45,764 nt of DNA from a virus. The stretch lies in IMG/VR virus record IMGVR_UViG_3300006052_000013. The stretch is one strand, 5' to 3'. Position numbers and translations under genes: made by a program. Shown here piece by piece: positions 1,284 through 32,220 of the stretch (position 1 is its first letter; each line of letters starts with the position of its first letter). The notes under the pieces are model-generated. The model did not search any database. It saw only the letters and a list, made by a program, of their open reading frames with translations, and was not told where the DNA came from.

Positions 1284-1892
1284 TTAAAGTGACTCCCCCA
1301 AGATTTCCGCCAACCGCGGCGGTTGGTAATTAGGACCCTTGCCGCCGACTCCCACCTTCTGGCCATACTTCATTCCCGGAACATTCGATATGGTAGGAAC
1401 GGCCTTGGTCATGTTCGAGCGATGAATCTCGCGGAACACCGCGTCGAATGGGATCGACCAGGCGATCGCCCCGGTTACCAGGGCATTAAACATCGTTCGA
1501 AGACAGATTTCTACTCGATCCAAAGATTCTGGGTCCTCCGGATTGGTACTCATGATCGCCTCATGCACGACACATGAAAGAGTCCCGAGTTGTGCAGACA
1601 AAATATGTATGAGATGGCCCGCGGGAAACATCTCAAAAACATTTGCCGTTCCCCGGTTCATTCCGTAGGCGATCAGCGTTCCCATGATAACATACCCCAG
1701 GTCCCCCATCGCATCCGCGATTTCAAGGCGGTCATCGGCGAGGGTCGCCGCGGCCAACTCTCCCAATTCTTCGGTAATCAACCGAAGACGTAACAGTACC
1801 ACCGTGATGGGAATCGGCCCGCGGTCAGATCGCCGAAATTGATTGTACTTATCCTGAAATTCTTTCAAAAGGTCTTCATAGGATTGATGCAT
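1284..1892 (-). CDS. MazG-like all-alpha nucleoside triphosphate pyrophosphohydrolase
   Basis: LITEELGELAAA...EIADAMGDLGYVIMG acidic-helix motifs. Start reset to the ATG after AAAAAGGAGAAAGAC. Confidence 0.6.
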   Translation of the reverse strand: MHQSYEDLLKEFQDKYNQFRRSDRGPIPITVVLLRLRLITEELGELAAATLADDRLEIADAMGDLGYVIMGTLIAYGMNRGTANVFEMFPAGHLIHILSAQLGTLSCVVHEAIMSTNPEDPESLDRVEICLRTMFNALVTGAIAWSIPFDAVFREIHRSNMTKAVPTISNVPGMKYGQKVGVGGKGPNYQPPRLAEILGESL

Positions 1893-2882: not shown

Positions 2883-3257
2883 TTATAAGGCAGCCGCCGC
2901 CGGTCGCCTTATTGGTATTGGTACGTTTCTTTTCCTTCCTCTTGTAGAGGTGCCATAATGAGGCGTTGTTTCGCCCAACTCTTTGAGAGATGCAGATGTT
3001 TTTAATTTGATACGATCGTCGTCATGGGTCCATCCAGTAAATCTGGAAAGCATCGTTCTAACGTCGTTCATACACACAGCATTCATGTTGCCCCAAAGAA
3101 TTCGAAAGCGAAGTTGACCATCTACAATCGTTTTATCAAAAATTTGACGATTATCCCGTTGCAATTCTTCAATTTCATCCCACCATTTCATCGCCAGTTC
3201 TTCATTGACATCTAATTCGCAATGTACAACAATCGCTAGTTTATCTTTTCCTCTCAC
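2883..3257 (-). CDS. hypothetical protein
   Basis: Start set to the GTG after GAAGGAGG, giving a GTGA overlap with the polymerase stop. Confidence 0.5.
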   Translation of the reverse strand: MRGKDKLAIVVHCELDVNEELAMKWWDEIEELQRDNRQIFDKTIVDGQLRFRILWGNMNAVCMNDVRTMLSRFTGWTHDDDRIKLKTSASLKELGETTPHYGTSTRGRKRNVPIPIRRPAAAAL

Positions 3258-5146
3258 TTTGCCTCCTTCCAATTCGCCCCGGTCTTTGCTTCCCAGAGAA
3301 TTGGAATTCTGAAATTGAAGTCCTGGGTGTTCAGCAACTCGTCCATATTTTTCAGATTCACTGGATCAGGGTCCTGATCACCATCAAACTCATCGTGAAC
3401 TACGAAACGCTCCGTATAATTTAACACCTTTCGCTCGCGGTGAACGATAAAAATTTTCTTTTTCATTACGTCGGCCGCGGTACCCTGGAGGATACGGTTG
3501 AGTGCCGAGTGCGGCTTATAGGCAATCTCCTCCATCAATCTGATCTTGGGGTCCTGACTGGATGGCTTCGTGAATTTCGCCCGCCGTCCCATAAAGGTCT
3601 TTACCCATCCTCGGTTCTCCGCCAGTTTTGTGGCCTGCCGAAGTAGCCTTCCCGCCTCGGGAAACTCGCTTTCGTAAGCATCGACGAACTTATCCGAGAT
3701 GCTTTGCAAAATGCCCAGTTGCAGGGCGATCTTCACCCGTCCGGCCCCGTACACCTTGGAAAAATTGATGGTCTTGGCCGGTTGCCGGTCGAAGTCCGGA
3801 ATCACGAGACGAATCAGGTCCCGAACCATATCATGAAAATCGACCCGCGGATTATCCCCGTATGCCTTATTTAGCTTTGGGGAATTGGCGTAGTGGGCAA
3901 ATAAGCGAAATTCAATCTGTGCCGCGTCGGCGCAGAGCCAAACTTTTCCGGGGGAGGGAATAAATAGTTCCCGGATTAACCAGTCGGGTCCCACGTCTCG
4001 AATCTGATCCTTAGTCCGCATGATCTGTTGGATATTGGCGCCGGGGATACCCTCGCCCGGACTGGCGGAAGAAAAGCGGCCACTGACCGTGCCCTTGTCA
4101 TCATTATTCGCCCGGAGTTGGTGCAGACTATACCGAAGAATATTTTTGTCATCCAGGGCCTTGAGATACTTCTTCAAATACTTAGACAATAATGAGGCGA
4201 TACGACGTGCCTTGACCGCAATTTGAATCTCGGGATTCGGAAGTTTGGCCAGATAGTCTCCCTCAAAACTATCCTGGCCCTTGTCGGTCCGGGGCGGGTC
4301 TATTCCCAAATAACGAAACATTCTTGACATGTCGGTGGAAGCATCGGGATTGACCCGGAATCCGACCCGTCGGTACAGTTCCATAATCAATTTATGGTAG
4401 GCGGCCTCGGCCTCCCGGACCCAACGCTCCAACTTAGGCCGGTCGATGAGCGCGCCGTTCCGTTCCATTGTGACCACGGCAAAAATGATGGAATCTTCCA
4501 AGTCAAGTACTTTATCCAGGTCATCTGACTTGATTGAATTTTTCAGTTTGCTTTCGATTCCATACCGCATTGCCATATCGAGTTGATAGACCCGTTGGGC
4601 ATCTATCTCGGCGTATGGCCCGACCATCGCGGCCGGCATATCGGCAATTTGGGACTTGTCATTTTTCCCGAGTTCCTGATCCTTTCCCACGATGCCCAGG
4701 ACGTCATTACACAAAATCTCTAAATTGAACTTGCGCCGGTATTCATCCAATAATGCCGCCTGGTAAGATACGTCATGGCACCGGTTACCGAGGGCCTCCA
4801 GATCAATACCCCAGTTATGAGTGACGTGGGTATCATACTTGGCATTTAACCAGGATATATCCTTGTCTCGGATTTCGCGTTCAAACCAGCGTTTTACCAG
4901 GCGTTCATCGAGGTTCCCTCCCCCGGCGTGACCAAAGGGAAGATACCATTTGTTTCCATCCTCCGTGTAAAAACTGTAACCCACGGGGCGGGCCGTGAAG
5001 GGATTCTTACTGGTGGCCTCGGAATCGGCCCACAACCACTTATACTTGCTCAGGTCGGGGAGAGACGGGGCGGTCCATTTCACGCCGTCCGATCTTTCCG
5101 CAAACCGAGCAAACATGTTTCCCGGCCTTACCGTGGGTAACTTCAT
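3254..5146 (-). CDS. family A (Pol I-type) DNA polymerase with 3'-5' exonuclease domain
   Basis: ADSEAT (Exo I), DAAQIEFRLFAHYA (motif A), PAKTINFSKVYGAG (motif B), VVHDEF (motif C). Start at MKLPTV forms an ATGA overlap with the upstream stop. Confidence 0.9.
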   Translation of the reverse strand: MKLPTVRPGNMFARFAERSDGVKWTAPSLPDLSKYKWLWADSEATSKNPFTARPVGYSFYTEDGNKWYLPFGHAGGGNLDERLVKRWFEREIRDKDISWLNAKYDTHVTHNWGIDLEALGNRCHDVSYQAALLDEYRRKFNLEILCNDVLGIVGKDQELGKNDKSQIADMPAAMVGPYAEIDAQRVYQLDMAMRYGIESKLKNSIKSDDLDKVLDLEDSIIFAVVTMERNGALIDRPKLERWVREAEAAYHKLIMELYRRVGFRVNPDASTDMSRMFRYLGIDPPRTDKGQDSFEGDYLAKLPNPEIQIAVKARRIASLLSKYLKKYLKALDDKNILRYSLHQLRANNDDKGTVSGRFSSASPGEGIPGANIQQIMRTKDQIRDVGPDWLIRELFIPSPGKVWLCADAAQIEFRLFAHYANSPKLNKAYGDNPRVDFHDMVRDLIRLVIPDFDRQPAKTINFSKVYGAGRVKIALQLGILQSISDKFVDAYESEFPEAGRLLRQATKLAENRGWVKTFMGRRAKFTKPSSQDPKIRLMEEIAYKPHSALNRILQGTAADVMKKKIFIVHRERKVLNYTERFVVHDEFDGDQDPDPVNLKNMDELLNTQDFNFRIPILWEAKTGANWKEAK

Positions 5147-5727
5147 AGAATCGAGTCTTTGCAAGGATACAAATAAAAACAAGCACTATCAATTACTTCC
5201 GTGGCATCTTTTAATGGATCGTGAAAAGCATTGGTAAGAATTCCACCGTTCTCTCTAACCCACAGGGTGTTTCCAATTCTCAATTGCCGGACGTTGTCCG
5301 GAGTCATTGAATGCTTTGGAAAAGATAAAAGAACCAAACCCCGGCGATCTCCGGGGTAATCTTCCAAAGCCACGATTCTTTTAATCGGCGTGTTGACTAT
5401 AGACTTTGCACAATTGAAACATGGAAAATTTGTGCAGTACATCGTCCAGGCTAAGTCTAGGCGATGACACGTAAGAATCGCATTTTGTTCTGCGTGCGTT
5501 GCCCAACAGGCCGTGTTTTCATTGCCAGAATCTCCGGGGGTTCGTTCCCCGGTGCAGGGGCTTCCTTCTGTTCCACAATGCGGTACACCCGAGCCAATTC
5601 CATTATATCCAGAAGATAGGATGGCCCCTCGAAGATCGGTGATAATGGCCCCGGTCTTTCGCCGGACACACGTGGCCCGTTCGGCCACCAATCGAAGGTG
5701 CCGAGTCCAGTATTGATCTATGTTCAT
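5143..5727 (-). CDS. dCMP deaminase
   Basis: HAEQNAI and PCFNCAKSI zinc-binding motifs; ATGA overlaps at both ends. Confidence 0.85.
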   Translation of the reverse strand: MNIDQYWTRHLRLVAERATCVRRKTGAIITDLRGAILSSGYNGIGSGVPHCGTEGSPCTGERTPGDSGNENTACWATHAEQNAILTCHRLDLAWTMYCTNFPCFNCAKSIVNTPIKRIVALEDYPGDRRGLVLLSFPKHSMTPDNVRQLRIGNTLWVRENGGILTNAFHDPLKDATEVIDSACFYLYPCKDSIL

Positions 5728-6557
5728 TTTCTCTCCTTCAAGATTGCAAGACACTTGTCGCTGCTTCCGGAGTGCAAGGCATCGGCGTATGCTTGCCAGG
5801 ATTTTGGCAAATTGGCAATATTGTGTAAAGTAAATTGGGCGTAGTCACGATATCCCAGATCGGGTAACCGCGGACTAATGACCATTTCCCCGGCCGGCGC
5901 CAACGCACAAGCGGCCGCCTCTTCCCAGTTATTTTGGTACAGGTGGGAAGAACCGAGATTCAAAACCAGGCTTCCGGGTTCTATTTTTAACTGCCCCGCC
6001 AGGCCATTAATAATCTGGCAAAAATTGAACACGTCGTGGGGAATTCCCAACCAGGCGTCGCTGGAACGCATATTAAAAATTCCATGTAGGTATTTGTCCC
6101 GAATCAAAAACTGACATGAAATTGTGCATGGAATATCTTTGGATCGACTTGGCATCGGGGTCCATATCGTTGCCACGGCCTGACGTGAGGATTCGTCGTG
6201 TTCTAATTGATGCAGAACGTAGTCCCATTGTTTGTGCAAGCGTGGCCCGTAGGCCCCGGCGAACACCCGGCCGTCATCCGAGTACTTGCAAATTTGCGAA
6301 TTGTACAGGGCCACGGTACCCACGTCTTCCCGGCCCGCGACGATCCATAGCCATTCTGCCAACATAAAGCGGTAGTTCAATTTTCTCATTGGAATATTCA
6401 TCACATTCCGGCGCACGTCGGAGATACCCAGACGAACTCCGATGAGTTCCTTGGTCATCATTTTGACTCGGCCAATCTCTACCATTTTGCCGCGGGTCAA
6501 AATCTCGTGTAACAGTAGGGGGTACAATTGATCGATGCTCGGCGCATTTATTTCCAT
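5724..6557 (-). CDS. ThyA-fold pyrimidine C5-modifying enzyme, predicted dCMP hydroxymethylase or dCMP methylase
   Basis: DIPCTISCQF (catalytic Cys region), MRSSDAWLGIPHDVFNF (RSxD..LG.P, with Asp where ThyA has Asn in PFNI), GSSHLY. Confidence 0.75.
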   Translation of the reverse strand: MEINAPSIDQLYPLLLHEILTRGKMVEIGRVKMMTKELIGVRLGISDVRRNVMNIPMRKLNYRFMLAEWLWIVAGREDVGTVALYNSQICKYSDDGRVFAGAYGPRLHKQWDYVLHQLEHDESSRQAVATIWTPMPSRSKDIPCTISCQFLIRDKYLHGIFNMRSSDAWLGIPHDVFNFCQIINGLAGQLKIEPGSLVLNLGSSHLYQNNWEEAAACALAPAGEMVISPRLPDLGYRDYAQFTLHNIANLPKSWQAYADALHSGSSDKCLAILKERK

Positions 6558-7462
6558 TTGAATTCCCTCACCTCTCTAAGTTTGTTGACAAATTCTGACC
6601 GGCGCTTTTGATGAAACCGGAAGAAACAGGCCGGGCGCATCAAGGATACAAAAGGTATGTCGGCCTTCCGGCAGGCCTCCTGGGCACTTTCTCCGAAGGC
6701 CAGGGCCACGGTCACTCCTCTCAGACGATCTGAGACCTGCCGAATATCCCGCGCATTTCCCTTGCGCGAAAATGTGTTGGTAAACATCAACTCATCTTCG
6801 TGATAGCCCGCCTCCCACAGGGCCTCGTTCAAGAATCGCGACGAATTTTTGGAATTGAAGAAAGGAAAATCTGTCTCGGTCCCATTGGTTCGTTCACCAA
6901 TTATCAGAAATCGGGCCGAGGGACATCCGATGGCCCAGGCCGGAAACGTTTCTTTGTTCATATCTCCCGACTTGAAATAATTCAGATACCAATTTTCAAT
7001 AGATATCTGAGTGTAGTCGAAGGTATGGTGGTAGGCCGATAGTCCCATAAACCGATGGTAACAATCTTTGAACTTACTCGCACTGCGCAGATAATCGTCC
7101 CCGGCCTCAAATTTCTTTTTCCAGTTCTGATAACATATCTCCCACGGCGGAGCGGCGATCACACACCTCACCGCCTGCGACCGGAATACCCGCCGGAACA
7201 TACGCATGCCGTAATAACCAACCCGATCATTATTCCGGGCGATGGGACCATAGATCATTTCCCCCAGATGAAACCGGTCAAAGACCACCGGCGATCGGCT
7301 ATGCATGGCCTTCCATAACTTTGCGGCGTAGTACTCGATCATGTCACCCTCGGCCGGCGGTGGTCCCTCATGAAAATATCTGAATCCCTTTTTAACAAGA
7401 TAGTTACACAAAGTCGTTTTTCCGGCGCCGTCCGGACCCTCAATAATCAATACTGGTGGCAT
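6548..7462 (-). CDS. P-loop dNMP/thymidylate-kinase-like domain fused to a UDG-superfamily-like domain
   Basis: N-terminus: IEGPDGAGKTT and DRF. C-terminus: FLIIGERTNGTETDFPFFNSKNSSRFLNEAL...FTN...ALAFGESA...LMRP, colinear with the family-4 UDG motifs GExPG..PF..G..L, N and HP. Confidence 0.55.
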   Translation of the reverse strand: MPPVLIIEGPDGAGKTTLCNYLVKKGFRYFHEGPPPAEGDMIEYYAAKLWKAMHSRSPVVFDRFHLGEMIYGPIARNNDRVGYYGMRMFRRVFRSQAVRCVIAAPPWEICYQNWKKKFEAGDDYLRSASKFKDCYHRFMGLSAYHHTFDYTQISIENWYLNYFKSGDMNKETFPAWAIGCPSARFLIIGERTNGTETDFPFFNSKNSSRFLNEALWEAGYHEDELMFTNTFSRKGNARDIRQVSDRLRGVTVALAFGESAQEACRKADIPFVSLMRPACFFRFHQKRRSEFVNKLREVREFKWK

Positions 7463-9216: not shown

Positions 9217-9382
9217 CGTCGATTCCCTTGGCCTTTGCCTGGATGTTTCCTTGAATTTTGGTAAGGCATATTTGGCATATACAAAAAACGTGTTCCCAGC
9301 CCTTTAACTTGAACTCACCCACCAGGCCGGGATTCCCGCATTGTCCACAATATCCGAGAAATGTCCGCATGTGTTCAAGCAT
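9200..9382 (-). CDS. small Zn-ribbon protein
   Basis: CGQC...CICQIC; fills the gap between coupled neighbours. Confidence 0.4.
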   Translation of the reverse strand: MLEHMRTFLGYCGQCGNPGLVGEFKLKGWEHVFCICQICLTKIQGNIQAKAKGIDDVSGT

Positions 9383-9936
9383 CAGAATCCTCCTTCGGTT
9401 CTCACCGGCCGATCTTTCATATACATCTCGATCATTTCAATTGGCCGAGGTTTATACGTTTTGGGGAAAGACCCGATCACGGCGTCCATCCCGACGTCAC
9501 AAGTCCGTTGGCTCATGGGATAGATCAATTTTGATCCGTGGCAGTGACCATGCAAAAGCCACGATCCCCGGCGATCTCCGTCCCATGAAATATGCGGATA
9601 ATGAGAAAGGCAGATTTTGTGATGGTTCCATTTCAATTCGTGGTAATCTTTTACCCACTCAAAAGGAAGGTCTTTGATTCGTTCGGAATGATCGTGGTTT
9701 CCCCGGACTAAATGAACGCGGCCATTCAAAAGGCTCATCACATCACGACGTGTCTCGGGAGTTGAATCAAAAAACATGTCTCCTAGGACATAAACGTCAT
9801 CTATGGGCCGGACGGTTTCGTTCCACAAAGTAACAAGGCCTGAGTTCATTTCTTCGGCCGTCTTCCAAGGTCGATTGCAAAACCCGATGATCTTCTCGTG
9901 GAAGAAATGCGGGTCGCTGTAAAAGAAAATCGACAT
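9382..9936 (-). CDS. calcineurin-like metallophosphoesterase
   Basis: YSDPHFFH, VLGDMFF, VRGNHDH, LHGHCHG. Start reset to the ATG (MSIFFY). Confidence 0.8.
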   Translation of the reverse strand: MSIFFYSDPHFFHEKIIGFCNRPWKTAEEMNSGLVTLWNETVRPIDDVYVLGDMFFDSTPETRRDVMSLLNGRVHLVRGNHDHSERIKDLPFEWVKDYHELKWNHHKICLSHYPHISWDGDRRGSWLLHGHCHGSKLIYPMSQRTCDVGMDAVIGSFPKTYKPRPIEMIEMYMKDRPVRTEGGF

Positions 9937-9938
9937 GT

Positions 9939-10055
9939 TTACCCCCAAAAGTTAGAGTTTGGATTCTTTAAAATAAAAACCAATAGTGCAAGCGCCACGG
10001 CCAACAACACCGCCGACAAAGTGAACGTCAAAACATCATCATAAAATTGTCCCAT
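9939..10055 (-). CDS. small membrane peptide (38 aa)
   Basis: MGQFYDDVLTFTLSAVLLAVALALLVFILKNPNSNFWG; one TM helix; stop lies 2 nt before the next ATG. Confidence 0.3.
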   Translation of the reverse strand: MGQFYDDVLTFTLSAVLLAVALALLVFILKNPNSNFWG

Positions 10056-10108: not shown

Positions 10109-11638
10109 TCACATTTCCTCGCGTATGGCGTTGAACTCGGGGGCGGTATAATCTTCTGTTTGGATATCCAATTTGTCAATGGGATACATCCATACTTTTA
10201 CCGTCCGACCTTTGATCTTCGTTTCTTTGAACTGGGCACCTTGCTTGTAAAGCATGGTATAAAGCACGTTACTATCAATAAACTGTCGACGATGATGTTT
10301 AAGAAAGTTTTGCAGGTCCACGGCCTTAAAGCAAATATACTTCTCCAGCTCTACCGGCGTGCCCATGAGTATGGCCTCCTCACCACGTTGAGAATTCTTG
10401 AACCGAGTCAAGAAATCCATAACACTGTTCATGATGGAACCCTCTTCACTGGCGTCATCCGGGGCCGCGATCACCTCTTGTTTAAGATGCAACTCATGCC
10501 GCATGGCCCGCCAACGATCAGATTTCATGGGTGGAATACAGATATTCATGATGTCTTCGACGCGTTGCATAAGACGGTCGAAATTGTAAAATTCCTCATT
10601 AGTCAGGGTCATCTCCCCGCCGTTAATCTCCACCATAAATTGGGGAGGATCGGTATCAATTTTTCTGAGGTGAGATATCAAGAAATCTCCCAGACTTCCA
10701 CTTTCTTTCCATGGCATGTGGGTATAACCGAATGGCAACGTATGACAAACCGGACGGTCACAATGTGATAAGATCGGTTCTTGTTCACAACGATATTGGT
10801 ACTTGGTGCCTCCGACGGACTTCAATAACCGGACCATTTCTTCTCGCGGGAGGGGCGGTTGACAAAACTTTTCATTGAATTCTAAAAACTTCTCTTCCCA
10901 AACTTTGGGGTGGGCCTTGCGCAAGAAAACTCCAAAATTGAACATACCATCGTTGCGCTTTCCCTCGGGCAACCCATGTTCCGCAAGATACTGAAGACAT
11001 GGCGGCATCACCGGACCCGAGGCCGGCGTGATCTTCGGGGCCTGTCCAATGATTACCAGTTCTTGTTCAGAAACTACCTGGTCATTTCCGTCCCAGTACA
11101 CCACCGAGTTCAAAAACTCTTCCAGTGTCATGGCCCCCTCGGGACCAATGGCATACCGATTGGTGTTGTCTCCATTAAAGTACGGTAAATTGATCCAGTT
11201 GCCCTGCCCGCTCTTATTAACCTGAATCTGTTTGGGAAAAACCTCCGACTTGGGATAACCCAGGATACCGGCCCAACGTTTTAATACGGGGATAATTTTA
11301 GATGGCTTGAAACCTTGCTCAGAAAAAAGATATAGATGTGCCCCGCCGGACTTCGACCGGCAAACCGTCAACGGCATCTTATGTTGAATAACTTTGGTTA
11401 AGAGTTGTCCGTGGTTTATCGTATCCACGTCTATATCAATGGCCGCGAATCGACAGGTACCATCTTTCAAAATCGGTACCAATCCTAAACCTCGCACCCC
11501 GGCGAGGTGTGCCCGGTAATCCTCCGGGGTGGCGGGACCGTCGGCCGTGTGATGATCGACGTTCCCGCCTTCCCGAATGGTTTGGACCCCGTGGGAGTAT
11601 TCGCTGCCCGCAAATAATTCTGCAAACAGTTTTGCCAC
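10109..11638 (-). CDS. bifunctional primase-polymerase (AEP prim-pol) with C-terminal extension
   Basis: FAAIDIDVD (DxD) and SKSGGAHLYLF (sGGxH); GTG start after GAGAGGAU. Confidence 0.7.
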   Translation of the reverse strand: MAKLFAELFAGSEYSHGVQTIREGGNVDHHTADGPATPEDYRAHLAGVRGLGLVPILKDGTCRFAAIDIDVDTINHGQLLTKVIQHKMPLTVCRSKSGGAHLYLFSEQGFKPSKIIPVLKRWAGILGYPKSEVFPKQIQVNKSGQGNWINLPYFNGDNTNRYAIGPEGAMTLEEFLNSVVYWDGNDQVVSEQELVIIGQAPKITPASGPVMPPCLQYLAEHGLPEGKRNDGMFNFGVFLRKAHPKVWEEKFLEFNEKFCQPPLPREEMVRLLKSVGGTKYQYRCEQEPILSHCDRPVCHTLPFGYTHMPWKESGSLGDFLISHLRKIDTDPPQFMVEINGGEMTLTNEEFYNFDRLMQRVEDIMNICIPPMKSDRWRAMRHELHLKQEVIAAPDDASEEGSIMNSVMDFLTRFKNSQRGEEAILMGTPVELEKYICFKAVDLQNFLKHHRRQFIDSNVLYTMLYKQGAQFKETKIKGRTVKVWMYPIDKLDIQTEDYTAPEFNAIREEM

Positions 11639-11650
11639 GCGATCCTCTCG

Positions 11651-12472
11651 TTAGAAGCCGGCACCCGTCTCATCCGGTGCCTCTTCGGTTTCCATACCGG
11701 TCATATCGGCCGTGATGTTGACATCCTTTAGTGAGTCGTAGGCCGTCTTCAGTTGCCGGAAAAGATCGGGCGGCACAAATCCCCGCGGCTTGATCGTCGG
11801 TGCGAACCAGCTCTGTTGTCCCTTGGTAACCTCGGTGGAAATCAATTCATAAACCCGGGCAAACATGGGGGTATTCGGGTTTAACTTTACCAGGGAATTC
11901 CATTGTTTCGACACTTTCAGACCGGTAGATTTGAGCGAGATGATGATCGGAATATCGGCCACCTCGCAAAAGAAGATACCCCCGGAGGCCGGACGGTCAA
12001 TTGGTTTTACGATCGCCGCGGGCCGATTGTGCAATTTGTCACAGGTGGGCCGGTGGTTATCCGAGAATTTGGCATGTTCACAGACCGTCGTTCCGTCCAA
12101 CTCTTCGCATTTGGGAGAAAGGAACCCCCCATCTTTTCCATTGAATGATTGGCACTCGATCCCACCCCCCTCGCTCATGGGATGAAACTTGATGCGCTGC
12201 TTGGAAAAAAGAATAGGAACCACCAAGACAGACTCTCCGTAGATTTCTCCGGTGATCGTGTTAAAGAACTGCCCATCGGTGAGGTTGGGGATGTGGTTGG
12301 CATCCGATTTCTTCTTTTGTGGGGTAAGAGACTGGCACAAACCAAGCCGCGGATAGGTAACATCCTGGCGCTCAATTTGCTCGGTCCCCTCACGACCCGT
12401 GATGTAATCTGGAACGGCCAATTTTCCGGTTACCTGTTCCAGGGCCTTATCTTCTTGTGTTGCTTTCGCCAT
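11651..12472 (-). CDS. hypothetical protein (Cys-cluster, possible DNA-binding or recombination accessory)
   Basis: 273-aa minus ORF in the replication module; no family confidently recognised. Confidence 0.55.
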   Translation of the reverse strand: MAKATQEDKALEQVTGKLAVPDYITGREGTEQIERQDVTYPRLGLCQSLTPQKKKSDANHIPNLTDGQFFNTITGEIYGESVLVVPILFSKQRIKFHPMSEGGGIECQSFNGKDGGFLSPKCEELDGTTVCEHAKFSDNHRPTCDKLHNRPAAIVKPIDRPASGGIFFCEVADIPIIISLKSTGLKVSKQWNSLVKLNPNTPMFARVYELISTEVTKGQQSWFAPTIKPRGFVPPDLFRQLKTAYDSLKDVNITADMTGMETEEAPDETGAGF

Positions 12473-12475
12473 TGT

Positions 12476-12979
12476 TTACTCTCCTTGACTCTCTTTTGCT
12501 TTTCTGCGCTTCAACTTTGTTTTCAGGAAGGCCGCGGCGCCCGGCGGAACTTCCTGACCGGTTTCGAGTCGTTCTTTAACGATCGAGGCCGCGGTCTGGT
12601 AATTTACGGTAAAAACGTCGTTAAGTCCATTTGTTTTCAGCCAGTTATAGAAACTTTCTCGGTCTTGTACCGATACATATACGGCCTGTTCCTGGTAAAA
12701 GGTCCGGCCGTCCGGCAGGGTAAACTTAGTGATACCCTCATCATCGAGAATGTCCACTACCATCTGGGTAATGGCCTCTTGCATAACCGCATTTACCGCC
12801 AGATCATCGTTGAGTTTATCCTCCTCTTTTCTGAGTTCGTCAAAGCGCAGGGCCAACTTTACCTTGTCGGCCAGGCCCTCGTCCCGCAGGTCTGATTTCG
12901 CCCGATCTACCTTTTCCTGATAGGTAGGTTCGTTGCTGTACCGTACCATGTTTTTCTTGTCTATTTTTGATTTTGCCAC
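12476..12979 (-). CDS. hypothetical coiled-coil protein
   Basis: GTG start after AAAGGGUGG; charged helical N-terminus and basic tail. Confidence 0.55.
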   Translation of the reverse strand: MAKSKIDKKNMVRYSNEPTYQEKVDRAKSDLRDEGLADKVKLALRFDELRKEEDKLNDDLAVNAVMQEAITQMVVDILDDEGITKFTLPDGRTFYQEQAVYVSVQDRESFYNWLKTNGLNDVFTVNYQTAASIVKERLETGQEVPPGAAAFLKTKLKRRKAKESQGE

Positions 12980-13212: not shown

Positions 13213-13920
13213 TCACCTCCCCAACTTCAAATTGTCGATCTGCCGGGACTCGGGTACGATATCGTCATACAAGAGTGGAATCCTTTGTTGAAATTCTTTC
13301 AATAACGGAATCGTGATCTGCCGCATTTGCGGATGGGCCTCTTTGGAAGTACGCATCAAAAAGAAATGCCGCCAACTGCGCAAATTTGCCGTGGTCACGA
13401 TACGCGAGGCCAGGGCATTGGGAAACACGCTCCGGGCCTCCTGCGGACGCCAACCTTTTTTGAGTAACGCGCAATACATATTTTCACAGTTTTGAATTAT
13501 CCATAACCAGTCCCGATTGTATTGACAGAGAGGAAAACCCGGACGATGGTGTATTCCGGATACGGTGGGTTCATCTCCCGTCCGGCAATATTCGCAATCA
13601 ACTCCCGGTATGGGGTAGATAAAGGCCGGCGGCATCTTCTTCTCATAATTGACAAACCTGGTACTCTCCTGGGTATAGGAGGCGAGTCGATGCCGTACCC
13701 ATTCGTGGGTTATACCCCGGTCCATCACGGCATCCACCGAGGCGGTGACGTGTTCTACCACTGACCAATCGCCATGGTCCATGACCACCGTTTTAATAAA
13801 CCGTTCGGTGTTAGGCGAAGCATCCTCCGATCGATGACTGATCCGGGCACACCACTCGATGTGCCGGAGTGGCTCCGGGGTCAGTACCATGATTTTAGCG
13901 TAGGGTTGAATTATTTTCAT
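13213..13920 (-). CDS. thyX: FAD-dependent thymidylate synthase ThyX
   Basis: ThyX signature RHRLASYTQESTRF (RHRxxSxxxxSxR). Confidence 0.9.
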   Translation of the reverse strand: MKIIQPYAKIMVLTPEPLRHIEWCARISHRSEDASPNTERFIKTVVMDHGDWSVVEHVTASVDAVMDRGITHEWVRHRLASYTQESTRFVNYEKKMPPAFIYPIPGVDCEYCRTGDEPTVSGIHHRPGFPLCQYNRDWLWIIQNCENMYCALLKKGWRPQEARSVFPNALASRIVTTANLRSWRHFFLMRTSKEAHPQMRQITIPLLKEFQQRIPLLYDDIVPESRQIDNLKLGR

Positions 13921-14366: not shown

Positions 14367-14563
14367 GACATCACCCGGTCACTAAGAATTTGTATTGATC
14401 CCGTTCCAATTTTCCACTTTTGGTCCAATCCCCACTCTTGAAGTATAGTTTTGGCCAAGGTTTCATTTTCTGCCATGATGTGGGCGCGAACGGCGAACTT
14501 GAAATTGATCTTAGGATCAATGAACTCGTTCGTCACTATGAACACTTTTTTCTCTGATTGCAT
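14363..14563 (-). CDS. hypothetical protein
   Basis: Start reset to the ATG after GGAGGAAAGCA. Confidence 0.5.
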   Translation of the reverse strand: MQSEKKVFIVTNEFIDPKINFKFAVRAHIMAENETLAKTILQEWGLDQKWKIGTGSIQILSDRVMS

Positions 14564-15218
14564 TGCTTTCCTCCATGGATTTTGCTGCAAAATTTACGGC
14601 CGCCTCGGCCGGGGAACGACCACAACGGGAACAGGTACAACCTTCGGTGTGATTTCCCTCGGTTTGGGTCCAGGTATCCGGCCGGCCGTCTTTGTGTTCC
14701 CGGACCCAGGCCTCAAGATAAATACAAACATTGTGATGCCATTCTTTAACGTCGTCACTGTAACAGTTCAGTTCAAATGAGGCCCTGGCCAATTTCATAT
14801 ATTCGTGTATCTCGCCGGTCAAGTTTACCAGAAAAAGATAAAGCCAACGAGGCGTGATACAAAACGAATATTTGTCGGCGACACAGAGTGTCGAGGTATT
14901 TTGTAAATGTTGTTTGGCCAGGAATCGAGAGTGATAGAGACAGAAATTATACCATGGTTTATAGTGCGGGGGTTTTTCCGGGTCCCACCCATCGAATAAC
15001 GCGCTCACGATCTGGGCACCGAGGTAGGGGTGTTGCTCGCCCTCCGGCCCGTCCATATTAGGTTTTCCAATGTAACCAAGATCATGAAAAAAGAAACAGG
15101 CCCATAACCGTGGGTCCCACGGAAACCCATAGAGTTTATACCAGGCCCGGGCCACAAACCAGGGGTGAATGAAAAAACAGTGGGCACCATAGAGAATGCT
15201 TTTGGTTCCAATTTTCAT
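14517..15218 (-). CDS. HD-domain phosphohydrolase
   Basis: FFFHDLGYIGK; the ATG overlaps the SNF2 stop (TAATG). Confidence 0.65.
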   Translation of the reverse strand: MKIGTKSILYGAHCFFIHPWFVARAWYKLYGFPWDPRLWACFFFHDLGYIGKPNMDGPEGEQHPYLGAQIVSALFDGWDPEKPPHYKPWYNFCLYHSRFLAKQHLQNTSTLCVADKYSFCITPRWLYLFLVNLTGEIHEYMKLARASFELNCYSDDVKEWHHNVCIYLEAWVREHKDGRPDTWTQTEGNHTEGCTCSRCGRSPAEAAVNFAAKSMEESNAIREKSVHSDERVH

Positions 15219-16741
15219 TATTCCTCCAATAGGGCCGACCGCCAACGATCCGTGGTCCAGTCGGCAAGATTTTCTTTGTTGCGAAGGGCCTTAATCACGG
15301 CGTGGTCGATGGTCTTCTGTCCATCTGGCCCGGTGGCAATTACGTCAGTGTACCCAACATTTTGAGTTTGTCCCGGACGATGGACGCGATCTTCGGACTG
15401 GAGGCGAGCGAGGAGTGAATAGTCACTCGAAATATACATGACATTTGGAAGGGTGGTGAGATTGAGTCCCAGACCACCCGCGTGTGGCTGTCCGAGAATA
15501 ATCGCGGGTCCAGTTCCTGCCATACCCTCGCGAACTGCGTCAGTTCTTTCTCTCTTTGATTGTTGTCCTCGGATGCTGTGAAGGTGTACACCAGTTCGCA
15601 TGATATTTTTGCACCCGCGTATTTCGTCATATATTCGATCAAGTTCCGGTCTAAATCGGCACCAGATAATTGTGCGGAAAGCACCGTTTTCGTCGAATCG
15701 TCTTTCGAGCCAATCCATAGTTCCATCCAACTTTTCACGTCCGATTTCCTCCGTTCTGGTTTCGCCCGTCTCTTGCATGATGGGGTCGCCGTCCATAATG
15801 CCATAGAGTGCCCATTCCTCCTGCGACATTTCGGTGATGCCTCCGAGGAACCCGGAGGTAATCTGCCCAAGGCGTAGGGCCTTCACCGGGGCGTGCCGGA
15901 CCATACACGCATCCGACCCGAGCCACACCACCATGTCATCCCGCATGGATTTGTACTTTTTCCAGTTCTCCGGCGTCAGGGCAACGGTCATGTGGGAATA
16001 AGTCTTGGGCGGAAGGTCCAAACAGTCTTCTTTAAGCCGCCGTAGAACATAGGGCGCCGTGAGCCGATTGACCTCCTCCGCGTTTTTGAATCCCACGATC
16101 TGCTTGTTCTTGAACCCTCCCATGATGGCATATCGTGCCCGAAAATGAAAGTAGGACTTACATTGCAGAATCTCGGGACTCAACATCTTAAACTGGCAGT
16201 ACAAATCGAGAAGGTTATTTCCGATGGGGGTGCCATTCAAAAGATAACGCCGCTTGCAATGAAGAGACAATTCATATGTTTGTTTAGTCTGACTGGCCTT
16301 GGGACTCTTCAAAAAAATAGATTCGTCCATGACCAACATCGTTTCCCGTCCACGCAATAATTTGACAAGTATGTTCAGGGGCGGGTCCTGTCGAATCAAT
16401 TCGTAAGAGACCACAATCCAAATGAGTCCCCGGCCGAATCTCAGGTCCCGAGTCTTTCCGTGAAAGTGATGAACAACCGACTCTACCCAGGCATGTTTCT
16501 GGATTTCTCCCAGATCGGGATCAAGCCACACGGTTTTCACCTGGGCAGGACAGGCGATGACCACGGTGTCAATCTCAGAGTTATCAAAAAGTACGCAGGC
16601 GGCGTCGATGGTCTGTTTCGTTTTACCAACGCCCATCTCGTCGAATAAGGCAAAATAGGGGTGTCGCACCAGGGCCGAGGTTCCAACCAACTGGTGCTTA
16701 AACGGTTTCAAGTTAAAACGAGATGGGTCAATTGTGATCAT
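15218..16741 (-). CDS. SNF2-family (SF2) helicase/translocase
   Basis: DEMGVGKT (I), MDESIFLK (II), LQSEDRVHRPGQT (VI). Confidence 0.9.
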   Translation of the reverse strand: MITIDPSRFNLKPFKHQLVGTSALVRHPYFALFDEMGVGKTKQTIDAACVLFDNSEIDTVVIACPAQVKTVWLDPDLGEIQKHAWVESVVHHFHGKTRDLRFGRGLIWIVVSYELIRQDPPLNILVKLLRGRETMLVMDESIFLKSPKASQTKQTYELSLHCKRRYLLNGTPIGNNLLDLYCQFKMLSPEILQCKSYFHFRARYAIMGGFKNKQIVGFKNAEEVNRLTAPYVLRRLKEDCLDLPPKTYSHMTVALTPENWKKYKSMRDDMVVWLGSDACMVRHAPVKALRLGQITSGFLGGITEMSQEEWALYGIMDGDPIMQETGETRTEEIGREKLDGTMDWLERRFDENGAFRTIIWCRFRPELDRIYDEIRGCKNIMRTGVHLHSIRGQQSKRERTDAVREGMAGTGPAIILGQPHAGGLGLNLTTLPNVMYISSDYSLLARLQSEDRVHRPGQTQNVGYTDVIATGPDGQKTIDHAVIKALRNKENLADWTTDRWRSALLEE

Positions 16742-17265: not shown

Positions 17266-17835
17266 TTAGTTTAATCTGGTGTGGTTGGCCAGTTGATTAA
17301 AGGCCGCCTCGTCGGTATGAAGCGCCAGAAACTGGGCAAGGACATTGTCGGCATCGGGAAGAGACGGCACGGGATGGGCGCAAAGTTTGTCTACCTCTTT
17401 GCCGTTCTCGATCTTCCGTACGTTACCGGCCCGACCCTTGTACAGACGGTATTGTTTATCGTTCACCTCCGTGTCAAAGTAACCCTTTTCTTTGTACATC
17501 TTCTGTTGTTCCGGGGTCAGGAACAAAAACAAAAGTTCTTCCGCTCGGGCCTGGGCCTTCTTGTCATGTTCCGCGGCCTCGGCCAGTCGAACTCGTTCGG
17601 CCTCTCGTTCTGCCGTAATTCGCGCCCGTTGTTGTTTGGTTGTTTCTTGGTAGGCGTTATTCCATACTTGCCACTGATAAATAACGTTCCCGGTTGCGCC
17701 GGTTGCGACCGTACTTGCTCCGGAATAAAAATAATTCCAGGCATCCCAAGTTACCGAGTTTCCAGTGGCACCGGTTGCATAGTTGCACTGTACCCAAAAT
17801 GGGTCCGGATAACAAACCGCATAGGTCATCGCCAT
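17266..17835 (-). CDS. hypothetical protein with ATGATGN repeats and a coiled coil
   Basis: Start reset to MAMTYAV after GGGAGGUUAGC; the upstream part of the track ORF overlaps the neighbouring gene. Confidence 0.55.
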   Translation of the reverse strand: MAMTYAVCYPDPFWVQCNYATGATGNSVTWDAWNYFYSGASTVATGATGNVIYQWQVWNNAYQETTKQQRARITAEREAERVRLAEAAEHDKKAQARAEELLFLFLTPEQQKMYKEKGYFDTEVNDKQYRLYKGRAGNVRKIENGKEVDKLCAHPVPSLPDADNVLAQFLALHTDEAAFNQLANHTRLN

Positions 17836-17836
17836 G

Positions 17837-18094
17837 CTAACCTCCCACCTGGGGTGGCACCATGATAATGCGTTCGGCCTCGGGATCAAATTTCTGCAAT
17901 ACTTCTCCCTTGCGGCCGTCTTTTCCCTCGGCCTTATAACCAATGTACCGTTTTCCCTTGAGGTCTTCAAACATCCTCCGGGCCGCGGCCGTTTCATCTG
18001 CACTTCCAGAGTCCCATATCGACCGGGTATCTCCGGTATTATCCAAAGTATGGATAATATGTTTTCCCGCCGGTACTTCCATGACATCTTGCAT
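17837..18094 (-). CDS. hypothetical protein
   Basis: ATG after AAGGAGAGACAC. Confidence 0.6.
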   Translation of the reverse strand: MQDVMEVPAGKHIIHTLDNTGDTRSIWDSGSADETAAARRMFEDLKGKRYIGYKAEGKDGRKGEVLQKFDPEAERIIMVPPQVGG

Positions 18095-28999: not shown

Positions 29000-29029
29000 C
29001 TTACCACGGGTATTACCCCGCGGCCCTCG
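29000..29029 (-). repeat. JH motif copy 5
   Basis: CGAGGGCCGCGGGGUAAUACCCGUGGUAAG; has a G-U pair; the sigma ORF stop UAA lies in the loop. Confidence 0.8.
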
Positions 29030-30362
29030 GTTGTTCTTCGGTGACCGGCGCCATCCAGTGCAGTTTTCCATCCGATTCCAGGATTAATTCTTTATCTTGG
29101 CATCGACGGATGATCGAATAGGCCTGACCATTTGTGGTACCCGCGGTCATCATCTTCTGAACTAATTCGTTCTTAGGAAGAGGCCCATCGGCGAGTATCT
29201 GTTTTAAGACCGGTTCCCAATATCCTCGTGGTGAACGAGTCTGCGGGGCATTTCCATTGACCTCATCATGGGCCGTCGCATTAATCGACTTCTTTCCCGT
29301 GATAATATCGTGGGCACTTGTCAGTTGTTCAATCACCGCGGTCCACTTACGGGCCTCGGCCTCGGATTCCGCGGCCTGCCGGGTATAAAACTGTACCTTG
29401 CGATGGGCATCAGATATCAAAGACTCGATGGTCGGTGGTGATCCACTTGGTATTTGTTCCATTGTTTTCTCTCCTTGTTGTTTTAGTTGAAAGAGATAGT
29501 TTTGATGAACAATCTCTTCCTGGGTATACTGCCGAACCGGCCCCGGTGCTGTGACCGTCCGGGGGGGACGGAGATTCACGGGGGTTTTTGCCAGAAGTCC
29601 GTGCGACGTAAATATTTGATTCGGGGCACGAGGGTCGCGTCCGCTCAGATGGTAATAACTACCCAGTTCCGTTTCATTGAATCTGGACGCCCCCGCATTC
29701 CGTGAACTTCGTATTTGCGTCGGTGGTGGACTCCCGATGTGTTCCCGGGCGGCCGCGGCGACCAGTTTTTCGCGCCGCAACCTTCGTTTTTTCTTGCTCA
29801 TTGATTTGCTCATTGATTTGCTCTCCCACAACACTCGAAGATCACTCAAACCGTGTGATTGATAGGCCTTTACGGCCCCGACGGACAAATTTAAAATTCC
29901 GGCGGTTTCTTCCAAAGTTTTTTCTTCCAGAAATCTAAGAAACAACACGCGGCGCCGGCTCCTATTCAAATACGGTAACAAGCGCAAAAAATGCTCACGT
30001 GTGATCCAGGAATCTATGGTTTTATCCGGAGTATCCGGCAAATCCAGGGTGTTTCCATCTTCATTGATGGGATTATCCAAGGATACTTCTGAAAGATTGT
30101 TCTTTCTTCGTAGGTACATCAAAAATTCCCGGTGCGCAATTTGATGCAACCAGGAACTTAATTTGGCCTCACCTCGAAAATCGCCGATGGCCAGAAAGGC
30201 CTTCGTAAAGGTCACCTGGGCCAGTTCTTCCACGGCGTCTTCATTCAGTTGCCAATATTTGCGCAAAGTTTTTTTTACCCGCGATAACTGGTCACGATAT
30301 ATTTGGGAGAACGCGTCTTGATCGCCGGATTTTGCACGATCTAATAATTCTTTTTCTTCCAC
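29013..30362 (-). CDS. ECF-like sigma-70 family factor with a ~270-aa C-terminal extension
   Basis: Region 2: DAFSQIYRD...SWLHQIAHREFLMYLRRK. Region 4: RRRVLFLRFLEEKTLEETAGILNLSVGAVKAYQSHGL. GTG start after AAAGGAGAACGUAA. Confidence 0.8.
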   Translation of the reverse strand: MEEKELLDRAKSGDQDAFSQIYRDQLSRVKKTLRKYWQLNEDAVEELAQVTFTKAFLAIGDFRGEAKLSSWLHQIAHREFLMYLRRKNNLSEVSLDNPINEDGNTLDLPDTPDKTIDSWITREHFLRLLPYLNRSRRRVLFLRFLEEKTLEETAGILNLSVGAVKAYQSHGLSDLRVLWESKSMSKSMSKKKRRLRREKLVAAAAREHIGSPPPTQIRSSRNAGASRFNETELGSYYHLSGRDPRAPNQIFTSHGLLAKTPVNLRPPRTVTAPGPVRQYTQEEIVHQNYLFQLKQQGEKTMEQIPSGSPPTIESLISDAHRKVQFYTRQAAESEAEARKWTAVIEQLTSAHDIITGKKSINATAHDEVNGNAPQTRSPRGYWEPVLKQILADGPLPKNELVQKMMTAGTTNGQAYSIIRRCQDKELILESDGKLHWMAPVTEEQPRAAG

Positions 30363-30953: not shown

Positions 30954-32057
30954 TTATTGTTTGACCAAATAACTTGTATCAACATCTACGTCTTCCCCGT
31001 TTCTCGACAACCGAGTTTGGTGCGAAATCAAGGAAAGATTTTCTTGAAAACTTGCAAGTTTGGGAACCGCCGTCCGTCCGATCATTGCAATGTAACCCCG
31101 ACCCCGCCAGGGTGGCATGTGATTTCTGGACAAACGTTCGACGATGGTTCGATAGTACAACATGCGATTGGTAAAGGACTCCGGGGCACCGGGTACGGGC
31201 GGCGTAAAGCTGATCTGAATATAATCAGTCCAACTTTTATCTGCGCCCGAGGCCCGCAGTTTGTACCGGGCCAGGGCGCCCGCGAAGTACCGCGCCAACT
31301 TGACATTGGCCGCGAACTCCGTAATGCCCGGTTCCCAGGCCCGATACCGTCGACGGTAATACTCCCGTTGCTCCGTGGGAATTTCCCCAGACCAACCCAA
31401 GTCCTGCAATTTTGCCCAAGACTTGGATTTATTCCGGTCATAACCCGGTTGGTCACTATCCACCAGATACTCGTACATGGCATCTTGTATCTGGTCGGCC
31501 AGGGCAAAGTAGGCCTCATAGGTAGTCAGATGTTTTTCCCGGACCGGATTCACAAAATGAAGATTTAGAATCCGAACCAAGGCCGACAAACCCTGTGAGT
31601 ACTCTTCCACCATTTCTGCTCCGACTGGGCCATCTTCTTGGTAGAGATACTCCGCGTTGATATCTTCAACACGAAGATTAAACTGGATAGATGGTGTGAA
31701 GACTTCCCGAACCTGCCGGTAAAGGCAGGCGAGTTGTTTCAGTGCCATGACCTCGGCCACATCCAGAATGGCCCCCGTCTTGGCCTTTCGGCCGCCCCAG
31801 GGAACCAGCACCGGAATTGCCTTACCCAGTTCGAGACTCTGCCGGATGACCGCCCGAATTGTCACCAGTGCCTCGGGTTTCGGGATCGGACCATAACGAT
31901 TCTGGTTCGTTCCCAAGAGAATACCGGTGATAATCTCGAGCAATGATTGTTTTGGAGGAGCCGCGGCGACGGGAAACTCCCGCCACAGAAACTCATCAAT
32001 CAAAGACGAGTAGGGATCGTCCACGGGTGATGTAACTTGGTACGTTGCTGTACTCAT
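30954..32057 (-). CDS. hypothetical protein (367 aa)
   Basis: Start reset to MSTATYQ after AGGAGAGGAAC; no family assigned with confidence. Confidence 0.6.
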   Translation of the reverse strand: MSTATYQVTSPVDDPYSSLIDEFLWREFPVAAAPPKQSLLEIITGILLGTNQNRYGPIPKPEALVTIRAVIRQSLELGKAIPVLVPWGGRKAKTGAILDVAEVMALKQLACLYRQVREVFTPSIQFNLRVEDINAEYLYQEDGPVGAEMVEEYSQGLSALVRILNLHFVNPVREKHLTTYEAYFALADQIQDAMYEYLVDSDQPGYDRNKSKSWAKLQDLGWSGEIPTEQREYYRRRYRAWEPGITEFAANVKLARYFAGALARYKLRASGADKSWTDYIQISFTPPVPGAPESFTNRMLYYRTIVERLSRNHMPPWRGRGYIAMIGRTAVPKLASFQENLSLISHQTRLSRNGEDVDVDTSYLVKQ

Positions 32058-32127
32058 GTTCCTCTCCTGGTATGGCAAACCAAGAGACGAAGTCTCTTGG
32101 TTCTGAGGTTTCCCCTCATTAACCATA
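32058..32127 (-). promoter_or_regulatory. Y-shaped 5'-UTR element copy C
   Basis: GUAUGGUUA-AUGAGGGGAAACCUCA-GAACCAAGAGACUUCGUCUCUUGGUU-UGCCAUAC-C-AGGAGAGGAAC-AUG. Confidence 0.6.
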
Positions 32128-32153
32128 CTTACCGTGGTTTCCCACGGCCCTCG
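32128..32153 (-). repeat. JH motif copy 9
   Basis: CGAGGGCCGUGGGAAACCACGGUAAG. Confidence 0.8.
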
Positions 32154-32156
32154 TCA

Positions 32157-32220
32157 TATCTCTAAATCTTGGAATGGCATTACATGAATATCTCTAAATC
32201 TTGGAATGGCATTACATGAA
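32157..32220. repeat. 32-bp tandem duplication (2 copies) at a gene 3' end / JH junction
   Basis: tatctctaaatcttggaatggcattacatgaa occurs twice and shifts the stop codon of 32180..32419. Confidence 0.85.

Follow-up and report, generated by a model that had tools for sequence, protein, structure and literature searches.

5-Hydroxymethylcytosine (5hmC) in phage DNA is a known anti-restriction strategy. The superfamily of thymidylate synthases and pyrimidine hydroxymethylases includes the deoxycytidylate (dCMP) hydroxymethylase gp42 of phage T4, the deoxyuridylate (dUMP) hydroxymethylases of phages SPO1, SP10 and M6, the 5-methyl-dCMP (5mdCMP) synthases of the Xp12/PaMx74 type, the 5-hydroxy-dCMP synthases RB69 gp48 and DLP3 gp80, and the cytidylate (CMP) hydroxymethylases MilA and BcmA. 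It is established that the exchange of Asn177 of Escherichia coli thymidylate synthase (ThyA) for Asp switches the enzyme between dUMP and dCMP (Hardy & Nalivaika 1992, Liu & Santi 1992 and Graves 1992, cited in PMC8670742). In a comparison of viral contigs with and without modified cytosine, position 177, along with position 147, was the one that best told the two groups apart (PMC8670742). As a mark of cytosine-modified phage DNA, this switch in ThyA homologues is already published, and the type of gene cassette treated here has been described in metavirome studies, where its Pfam domains were reported together on viral contigs carrying modified cytosine (PMC8670742; bioRxiv 10.1101/2024.12.05.627091). 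We found such a cassette in the IMG/VR virus record IMGVR_UViG_3300006052_000013. The whole stretch analysed, hereafter the window, is a 45,764-nt portion of a 99.5-kb metagenomic contig and carries phage early and replication genes, nearly all on the minus strand; a 25-kb part of it has no megablast match among 50,697 phage records. Judged from its sequence, one open reading frame (ORF) of 277 aa with an ATG start, hereafter the query, probably encodes a folate-dependent deoxycytidylate C5-hydroxymethylase:

5724..6557, minus strand: predicted dCMP C5-hydroxymethylase (5-hydroxymethyl-dCMP, 5hmdCMP, synthase) with the ThyA fold, from PF00303, the PDB match, the active-site residues and the AlphaFold2 (AF2) model

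A ThyA homologue with aspartate at position 177

The query matches the Pfam family Thymidylat_synt (PF00303) with an E-value of 3.3e-21 and 76 bits (cutoff 24.3), as well as four PHROG families named 'thymidylate synthase'. Its scores against the NCBIfam thymidylate synthase equivalogs are all far under the cutoffs, the best being 64 bits against 327. The Pfam match, the catalytic residues and Foldseek matches that lie solely within the superfamily place the protein among the thymidylate synthases and pyrimidine hydroxymethylases. An earlier note on this DNA had proposed a ThyA-fold enzyme from two motifs, SRSKDIPCTISCQF around the catalytic Cys and MRSSDAWLGIPHDV; both are present, Cys144 is in place and the fold assignment stands. 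In HMMER pairwise alignments with several solved thymidylate synthases, 'RSSDAWLGIPHDV' of the query falls on 'RSGDVGLGVPFNI' and its equivalents. Asp175 (codon 6033-6035) is the equivalent of E. coli Asn177; two MAFFT alignments with E. coli ThyA among the sequences agree. The Asp that the note had assigned to this position is therefore found there in every alignment made, and alignment with ThyA, T4 gp42 and phage dUMP hydroxymethylases does not move it elsewhere. As the note had also said, T4 gp42 has an Asp at this position (Asp179), and so does MilA (Asp186). The other informative residues are as follows:

6126-6128, minus strand: Cys144, catalytic, equivalent to E. coli C146
6135-6137, minus strand: Asp141, equivalent to E. 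coli Leu143
6057-6059, minus strand: Asp167, equivalent to E. coli Asp169
Minus strand, located by the alignments: Glu68, Tyr103, Arg125, Thr145, Arg164, Ser165, His205 and Tyr207, further key residues

The superfamily set (E. coli Glu58, Tyr94, the Arg166/Arg126 phosphate clamp, C146 and His207/Tyr209) is present in the query and invariant in its family, and Thr145 stands at the position of E. coli H147, as in T4 gp42. We then compared five positions with a reference panel drawn from annotated records. The columns are E. coli positions 143/146/147/169/177; position 143 was set by counting three residues before the catalytic Cys (the MAFFT --auto column is off by one).

Query: D-C-T-D-D
T4 gp42 (5hmC): D-C-T-D-D
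RB69 gp48 (5-hydroxycytosine, 5hoC): E-C-T-N-D
M6 and SP10 dUMP hydroxymethylases: D-C-N-D-N
PaMx74 (Xp12 genus/group; 5-methylcytosine, 5mC): N-C-P-D-D
E. coli ThyA: L-C-H-D-N

A search of 5.8 billion proteins returned 1,413 homologues of the query at E<=1e-10. The D-C-T-D-D pattern, with its acidic residue at position 143 (Asp141), is kept in all of the 119 closest ones. A profile of the query family gave 3,869 matches at E<=1e-30, a threshold that lets in related hydroxymethylases as well, among 1.84 billion cluster representatives. The pattern is found in 139 of 144 further top representatives, so that the four variable marker residues are kept in 258 of the 263 relatives with database identifiers. 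An acidic residue at position 143, which correlates with water addition to the methylene intermediate, accompanies hydroxymethyl products, for example in T4 gp42 and MilA, and the change D169N marks the flavin-dependent 5-hydroxy-dCMP synthases (PMC13326640). Such a synthase, of the RB69 gp48 or DLP3 gp80 type, is marked by Asn at position 169, and it is ruled out by the Asp retained in the query (Asp167) and in 119 of 119 homologues. Ser167 together with Arg126 goes with a preference for deoxyribose, and Ala with Lys for ribose; the MilA mutant A176S/K133R prefers dCMP (PMC5175136). Ser165 and Arg125 of the query occupy the positions of MilA Ala176 and Lys133 and are of the deoxyribose type, which indicates a deoxyribose substrate.

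The closest solved protein is the CMP hydroxymethylase MilA (phmmer against PDB, E 3.5e-25, 91.7 bits), the runner-up having an E-value of 1.8e-13. In a Foldseek search with the AF2 model of the query (predicted local distance difference test score, pLDDT, 96.7), MilA is again on top, with a template modelling (TM) score of 0.81-0.85 over about 300 columns including its helical C-terminal region, while thymidylate synthases reach only 0.64-0.74. The query C-terminus aligns with this helical region and not with the ThyA tail, which folds over the folate for hydride transfer. Against the query-family profile, the dUMP hydroxymethylases of SP10 and M6 score 160 and 108 bits, E. coli ThyA 98, PaMx74 89, RB69 gp48 75 and T4 gp42 57 bits. 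BLASTP of the query gives 79 bits for SP10, 64-66 for M6 and 51 for T4 gp42; the profile, BLASTP and phmmer scores come from separate methods. Thus, the closest branch among phage enzymes is that of the dUMP hydroxymethylases, and the PaMx74 enzyme is nearest to ThyA rather than to the query. This ranking, with MilA and the dUMP hydroxymethylases on top, puts the query on the hydroxymethylase side of the superfamily, carrying the cytosine switch. By sequence it is not a gp42 orthologue; it falls in a separate MilA-like clade with a predicted gp42-like function.

The gene neighbourhood and the proposed pathway

We then investigated the genes around the query. The ones that bear on its function are these:

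6548..7462, minus strand: fusion of a kinase and a uracil-DNA glycosylase (UDG) fold (Thymidylate_kin P-loop, UDG PF03167 4.7e-5, phrog_761)
5143..5727, minus strand: dCMP deaminase family protein (PF00383 7.5e-15, MafB19-deam, phrog_174)
3254..5116, minus strand: family A DNA polymerase, PolA (PF00476 1.1e-46, DNA_pol_A_exo1)
1284..1892 (1922), minus strand: MazG/PRA-PH-type all-alpha nucleoside triphosphate (NTP) pyrophosphohydrolase (PF01503 2.9e-10, phrog_671)
13213..13920, minus strand: ThyX, flavin-dependent thymidylate synthase (PF02511 1.4e-39, TIGR02170 100.5 bits, cutoff 87.9)

The kinase gene ends 10 nt inside the hydroxymethylase gene, whose own stop shares the sequence ATGA with the deaminase start, and each start in this run is preceded by a Shine-Dalgarno-like sequence. 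These overlaps couple the kinase fusion, the hydroxymethylase and the deaminase translationally. The order kinase, thymidylate synthase (TS) homologue, deaminase, PolA and then PRA-PH is also found in the related contigs L014 and L015; two others, L016 and L017, have kinase, TS homologue, PolA and PRA-PH without the deaminase. PolA adjoins the deaminase or the TS homologue in all five related contigs compared, and the MazG-like gene is conserved a few genes past PolA in L014-L017. A PDB sequence search with the MazG-like protein gave no match at 0.01. The deaminase matches 2HVV (9e-11) and the T4 cd protein 1VQ2 (4.6e-9) in PDB with the HAE and PCxxC zinc motifs aligned, and may also act on 5-substituted cytosine nucleotides.

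The earlier note had named a dCMP deaminase, a MazG-like pyrophosphatase and a separate ThyX at these places, and the domain matches listed above agree with all three, TIGR02170 being above its cutoff. Its deoxynucleoside monophosphate (dNMP) kinase is only half of the story. The kinase domain is there, but Pfam, AF2 and Foldseek show a UDG fold fused to it: residues 1-170 or so are like a P-loop (deoxy)nucleoside monophosphate kinase, and residues from about 178 to 304 like a family-4 or UdgX-like UDG. A PDB sequence search with this protein gave nothing beyond P-loop noise, and its nature came from the AF2 model (pLDDT 95.5) and from Foldseek, which matched the N-terminal half with deoxynucleoside and thymidylate kinases (dNK/TMPK) and the C-terminal half with UdgX and the UDGs of T. 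maritima and T. thermophilus. We found 73 homologues, many with both Pfam domains, and the architecture is conserved in more than 50. The UDG-fold domain is without obvious Fe-S cysteines and keeps the Asn that reads uracil-type bases. The motif-B His, present in at least 90% of the fusion family, is Arg in the window copy. The fusion gene stands directly upstream of the TS homologue in phages AXL3 and PW916 and in L014, L015, L016 and L017. Four domain types that accompany the T-even enzyme (dNMP kinase, pyrophosphatase, dCMP deaminase and a separate thymidylate synthase) are thus recognisable in the window. The note had called this gene set T4-like; the pathway logic holds, but by descent the set is better seen as a cassette of TS(N177D), dCMP deaminase, PRA-PH and PolA.

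The cultured phage AXL3 carries the same cassette. Its TS homologue gp28 is 39% identical to the query and has D-C-T-D-D. Directly upstream, gp29 is homologous to the kinase fusion over both domains, and the phage further carries a deaminase (gp27), an NTP pyrophosphatase (gp30) and a ThyX (gp50). Of 37 restriction enzymes, only the two with A/T-only sites digested AXL3 DNA, and the authors of that study concluded that G/C bases are modified, leaving the base unnamed (PMC7504290). We predict that this DNA contains 5hmC or a derivative of it. The TS homologue of PW916 (L003, 3280-4098) is annotated 'deoxyuridylate hydroxymethyltransferase'; its Asp at position 177 makes the uracil part of this name unlikely. 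Similarly, the public annotations of the AXL3 enzyme (L006, 5947-6756) and of that of HTVC119P (L007, 5863-6711) clash with their D-C-T-D-D residues. The enzymes of PW916, AXL3 and two Pelagibacter podoviruses are probably cytosine-specific too.

From these features we infer the following product chemistry, substrates for the kinase, MazG-like protein and deaminase, and extent of replacement. Cys144 would add to C6 of dCMP, with Asp175, in place of the uracil-reading Asn, reading the N3/N4 face of cytosine. The one-carbon unit of 5,10-methylene-tetrahydrofolate (methylene-THF) would move to C5, and the exocyclic methylene intermediate would be hydrated, not reduced, to give 5hmdCMP and THF. 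The kinase domain of the upstream fusion may phosphorylate 5hmdCMP, as T4 gp1 does; the host nucleoside diphosphate kinase would make 5hmdCTP, and the phage PolA would insert it. Analogous to T4 gp56, the MazG-like pyrophosphatase may lower dCTP (and dUTP), while the coupled deaminase would turn dCMP into dUMP and ThyX would convert dUMP to thymidylate (dTMP). 5hmC would then take the place of most or all virion cytosine, possibly with further decoration by unrecognised enzymes, and would protect the DNA from host nucleases. The claim in the earlier note that the query is a cytosine-specific ThyA homologue, with dTMP coming from ThyX, fits all the evidence gathered. Its further proposal that the virus makes 5-hydroxymethyl- or 5-methyl-dCTP is supported, and between the two we favour hydroxymethyl because of Asp141, Thr145, the similarity to MilA and the dUMP hydroxymethylases, the retained ThyX and the lack of a dihydrofolate reductase (DHFR) match among the 64 ORFs scanned in the window (Pfam and PHROGs). 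In L016 and L017, the TS homologue is preceded, at a distance of four to five genes, by a gene with a helical domain of 5-hydroxymethyl-pyrimidine DNA kinases (HMUDK_hel). Such a kinase needs a hydroxymethyl group in DNA, which supports hydroxymethylation in these two distant relatives.

The modified base: objections and alternatives

Several observations weigh against a hydroxymethylase. The query's clade has no biochemically characterised member, the query is not orthologous to T4 gp42 (51 bits, as above), and the rule for position 143 and the product is correlative, drawing on few characterised enzymes. Five of the seven tested TS(N177D) genes beside deaminases made 5-methyl-dCMP (bioRxiv 10.1101/2024.12.05.627091). 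The same Pfam and PHROG searches of the 64 ORFs recognised no enzyme that would decorate 5hmC, whether glycosyltransferase, carbamoyltransferase, TET/JBP, HMUDK or aGPT-Pplase. Finally, a homologue of C5 methyltransferases is conserved alongside the enzyme; were all cytosine replaced, a C5 methyltransferase would have nothing to act on in the DNA of the phage. The Pfam and PHROG searches likewise gave no match to a nuclease specific for cytosine-containing DNA.

23815..24987, minus strand: divergent C5 cytosine-methyltransferase-like protein (PF00145 7.7e-16)

The earlier note had listed this protein as a C5 DNA methyltransferase, and homology is confirmed by the Pfam match and by a profile match to M.HhaI (6.8e-12). 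Across 120 homologues the family keeps the Cys of PPC, the Glu of ENV (ESV here) and QxRxR, with them the Cys, Glu and Arg that serve to activate cytosine, and it also retains the motif II Glu. In place of the S-adenosylmethionine (AdoMet) motif I FxGxGG it has an invariant [ST]-Y-[AG]-G-S-L, and its motif X is altered as well. A tblastn search with the protein against 50,697 phage genomes, AXL3 included, gave no match at E<=1e-10. The tension that the note saw between this gene and full cytosine replacement is present, but it is not peculiar to this element, since homologues recur on the contigs of the enzyme family. The lists of the best 120 homologues of the TS family and of this family share 16 contigs of at least 5 kb (matched on longest-contig size), and in L014, L016 and L017 the homologue lies two genes upstream of the kinase-TS pair. 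This recurrence suggests that the two are somehow compatible. The protein may methylate residual or host cytosine, in which case replacement would be incomplete. C5 methyltransferases can swap the hydroxyl of 5hmC for other nucleophiles in vitro. That the present protein is a post-replicative enzyme working on 5hmC or on residual cytosine of the phage DNA seems to us improbable; if true, a natural enzyme that makes such an exchange would open a new way to hypermodified cytosine.

In L016 (5918-7365) and L017 (5570-6939), HMUDK_hel and Vsr endonuclease genes stand upstream of the C5-methyltransferase-like gene, at a distance of two to four genes, and of the kinase-TS pair. This arrangement hints at a post-replicative hypermodification of 5hmC in those two phages.

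An unlikely, though serious, alternative is that the query is a 5-methyl-dCMP synthase of the Xp12/PaMx74 type, cytosine being replaced by 5mC and the adjoining deaminase being a 5mC-selective one that turns part of the 5mdC nucleotides into dT nucleotides. The PaMx74 enzyme shares Asp177, the AXL3 restriction pattern is like that of Xp12-like phages, and the tested genes mentioned above come from the same TS(N177D), deaminase, PRA-PH and PolA arrangement, their deaminases preferring 5-substituted cytosine and supplying dT nucleotides (bioRxiv 10.1101/2024.12.05.627091). However, positions 143 and 147 are Asp and Thr in the query, of the hydroxymethylase type, and Asn and Pro in PaMx74, and the two proteins go to different sides in the similarity ranking, the query family towards MilA and the dUMP hydroxymethylases and PaMx74 towards ThyA. 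DHFR occurs in eight of eight Pamexvirus phages but was not found among the 64 window ORFs scanned; in PaMx74 it adjoins thyA, the single thymidylate synthase annotated there (50 kb examined). The window keeps ThyX, although the 5mdC-deamination route is said to make a second thymidylate synthase unnecessary, and the closest structural relative of the 5mC-selective deaminase is PBCV-1 7FH4 (bioRxiv 10.1101/2024.12.05.627091), whereas our deaminase is nearer in sequence to the classical dCMP deaminases. The HMUDK_hel kinases beside the TS homologue in two relatives also speak for hydroxymethyl.

Less likely still is a variant in which dCMP is hydroxymethylated and much of the product is then deaminated to 5-hydroxymethyl-dUMP, so that the DNA carries 5-hydroxymethyluracil (5hmU), or 5hmC together with 5hmU, for further modification. 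Deaminases in cis with TS(N177D) gave 5hmdU from the 5hmdC pool in vivo (bioRxiv 10.1101/2024.12.05.627091), and the overlap of the hydroxymethylase and deaminase genes would suit such a route, as would the uracil-reading Asn of the fused UDG-fold domain and the HMUDK_hel kinases, known from 5hmU pathways, of two relatives. Yet these relatives, L016 and L017, have no deaminase within 10 kb, and the window itself gave no HMUDK or aGPT-Pplase homologue. The cutting of AXL3 DNA at A/T-only sites argues against heavy thymine replacement, and ThyX is present for ordinary dTMP.

We consider it very unlikely that the query is specific for dUMP, whether as an ordinary thymidylate synthase, the name given by the JGI, PHROG and AXL3 annotations, or as a dUMP hydroxymethylase, as in the PW916 annotation. 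Database names, PHROG families and the nearest phage records do say thymidylate synthase or deoxyuridylate hydroxymethyltransferase, and the adjoining dCMP deaminase would supply dUMP. However, the query and 258 of the 263 scored relatives have Asp at position 177, where M6, SP10 and E. coli ThyA have Asn. Canonical ThyA is rejected by the differences at Asn177, Leu143 and His147, the C-terminus that aligns with MilA rather than with the ThyA tail, and the equivalog score of 64 bits against 327. A dUMP hydroxymethylase of the SPO1/SP10/M6 kind is marked by Asn177 and Asn147, where the query has Asp175 and Thr145. Moreover, a ThyX is encoded separately in the element. A MilA- or BcmA-like enzyme that hydroxymethylates the ribonucleotide CMP, serving a nucleoside secondary metabolite or RNA modification, is hardly credible: the best match among solved structures, in sequence as in fold, is MilA, but its ribose preference comes from Ala176 and Lys133, where the query has Ser165 and Arg125, as in deoxyribose-specific enzymes and in the dCMP-preferring MilA mutant, and the gene lies between the kinase and the dCMP deaminase in a phage replication operon, next to PolA.

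Other genes of the window and comparison with known systems

The window carries further genes of note. The 851-aa product of 18149-20704 (minus strand) matches the shoulder domain of the Major Vault Protein (PF11978, 1.5e-26) and, weakly, the vault repeat; that it matches no PHROG is unusual among phage proteins. The ORF at 29013-30362 (minus strand, 449 aa) has N-terminal sigma-70 regions 2 and 4 followed by about 270 residues of unassigned function, and probably encodes a phage sigma factor. A T4 Rnl1-like RNA ligase (22670-23818) and two calcineurin-like metallophosphoesterases (20914-21519 and 9382-9948; all minus strand) are possibly an RNA or tRNA repair set. At 10109-12979 (minus strand), an AEP-TOTE-type primase-polymerase (509 aa) is followed by Pam3 gp34-like and gp33-like (DUF7307) proteins, and this trio is conserved in L015. 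The regions 32100-37400 and 39000-45764 have no ORF above about 170 aa. Stop-codon reassignment was tried for 32-37 and 39-45.7 kb, and recoding of TAG, TGA or TAA gave no coherent long minus-strand ORFs, indicating that these regions are clusters of small genes. A related contig shows the same small-gene pattern, and about 10 kb past the right end consist of small ORFs of unassigned function. Four proteins encoded at 30954-32126, 37429-39021, 17266-18087 and 14517-15245 (all minus strand; 390, 530, 273 and 242 aa) have no Pfam or PHROG match and could be hiding places for a DNA-modifying enzyme.

Our analysis gives a confident functional call, as cytosine-specific and probably hydroxymethylating, for a very large family usually annotated 'thymidylate synthase'. 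To the published picture it adds the dCMP, deoxyribose and hydroxymethyl assignment, a large and mostly mis-annotated MilA-like phage clade, the link to a cultured phage with the same cassette, AXL3, and two companions of the enzyme, a kinase fused to a UDG fold and a C5-methyltransferase-like protein with variant motifs. Phages of this type would withstand many restriction enzymes as well as some of the chemistries used for library preparation or sequencing, and the deaminase, the kinase fusion and other enzymes of theirs are candidate tools for epigenetic sequencing.

Among known systems, T4 gp42 (1B5E) has the same Asp143, Cys146, Thr147, Asp169 and Asp177 (E. coli numbering) and the same predicted reaction, and the T-even 5hmC pathway likewise has a dNMP kinase, a dCTP-clearing all-alpha pyrophosphatase, a dCMP deaminase and a separate thymidylate synthase. 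In contrast, gp42 belongs to another clade (about 51 bits) and is without the MilA-like helical C-terminal region of the query. The thymidylate synthase of T4 is Td, where the window has ThyX, and the kinase here is fused to a UDG fold; the T4 glucosyltransferases and nucleases specific for cytosine-containing DNA were not found in the window. MilA of Streptomyces rimofaciens (5JNH, 5B6D and 5JP9) is like the query in sequence and fold (E 3.5e-25, TM 0.85, 27-28% identity), in the Asp at positions 143 and 177 and in the extra helical C-terminal region. It differs in having Ala176 and Lys133 and in preferring ribo-CMP, whereas the query has Ser and Arg and lies in a phage DNA-replication operon.

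The Xp12/PaMx74 5-methyl-dCMP synthases share the ThyA fold, Asp177 and an adjoining deaminase, but they have Asn143 and Pro147, are nearest to canonical ThyA and come with DHFR, and PaMx74 has no second thymidylate synthase annotated (50 kb examined). The metavirome TS(N177D) cassettes found by MetaGPA have the same co-localised Pfam domains and Asp177 (PMC8670742; bioRxiv 10.1101/2024.12.05.627091); their tested members mostly make 5mdCMP and are Xp12/PaMx74-like, whereas the query has hydroxymethylase-type residues, ThyX and the kinase-UDG fusion. The closest cultured counterparts are AXL3 and PW916, with TS homologues of 39-44% identity, the kinase-UDG-fold fusion upstream, a deaminase, an NTP pyrophosphatase and ThyX. 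AXL3 differs as a 47.5-kb siphovirus of another lineage whose methyltransferase, gp31, is a non-C5 enzyme with no homologue in the window and whose published annotation lists no C5 methyltransferase (PMC7504290).

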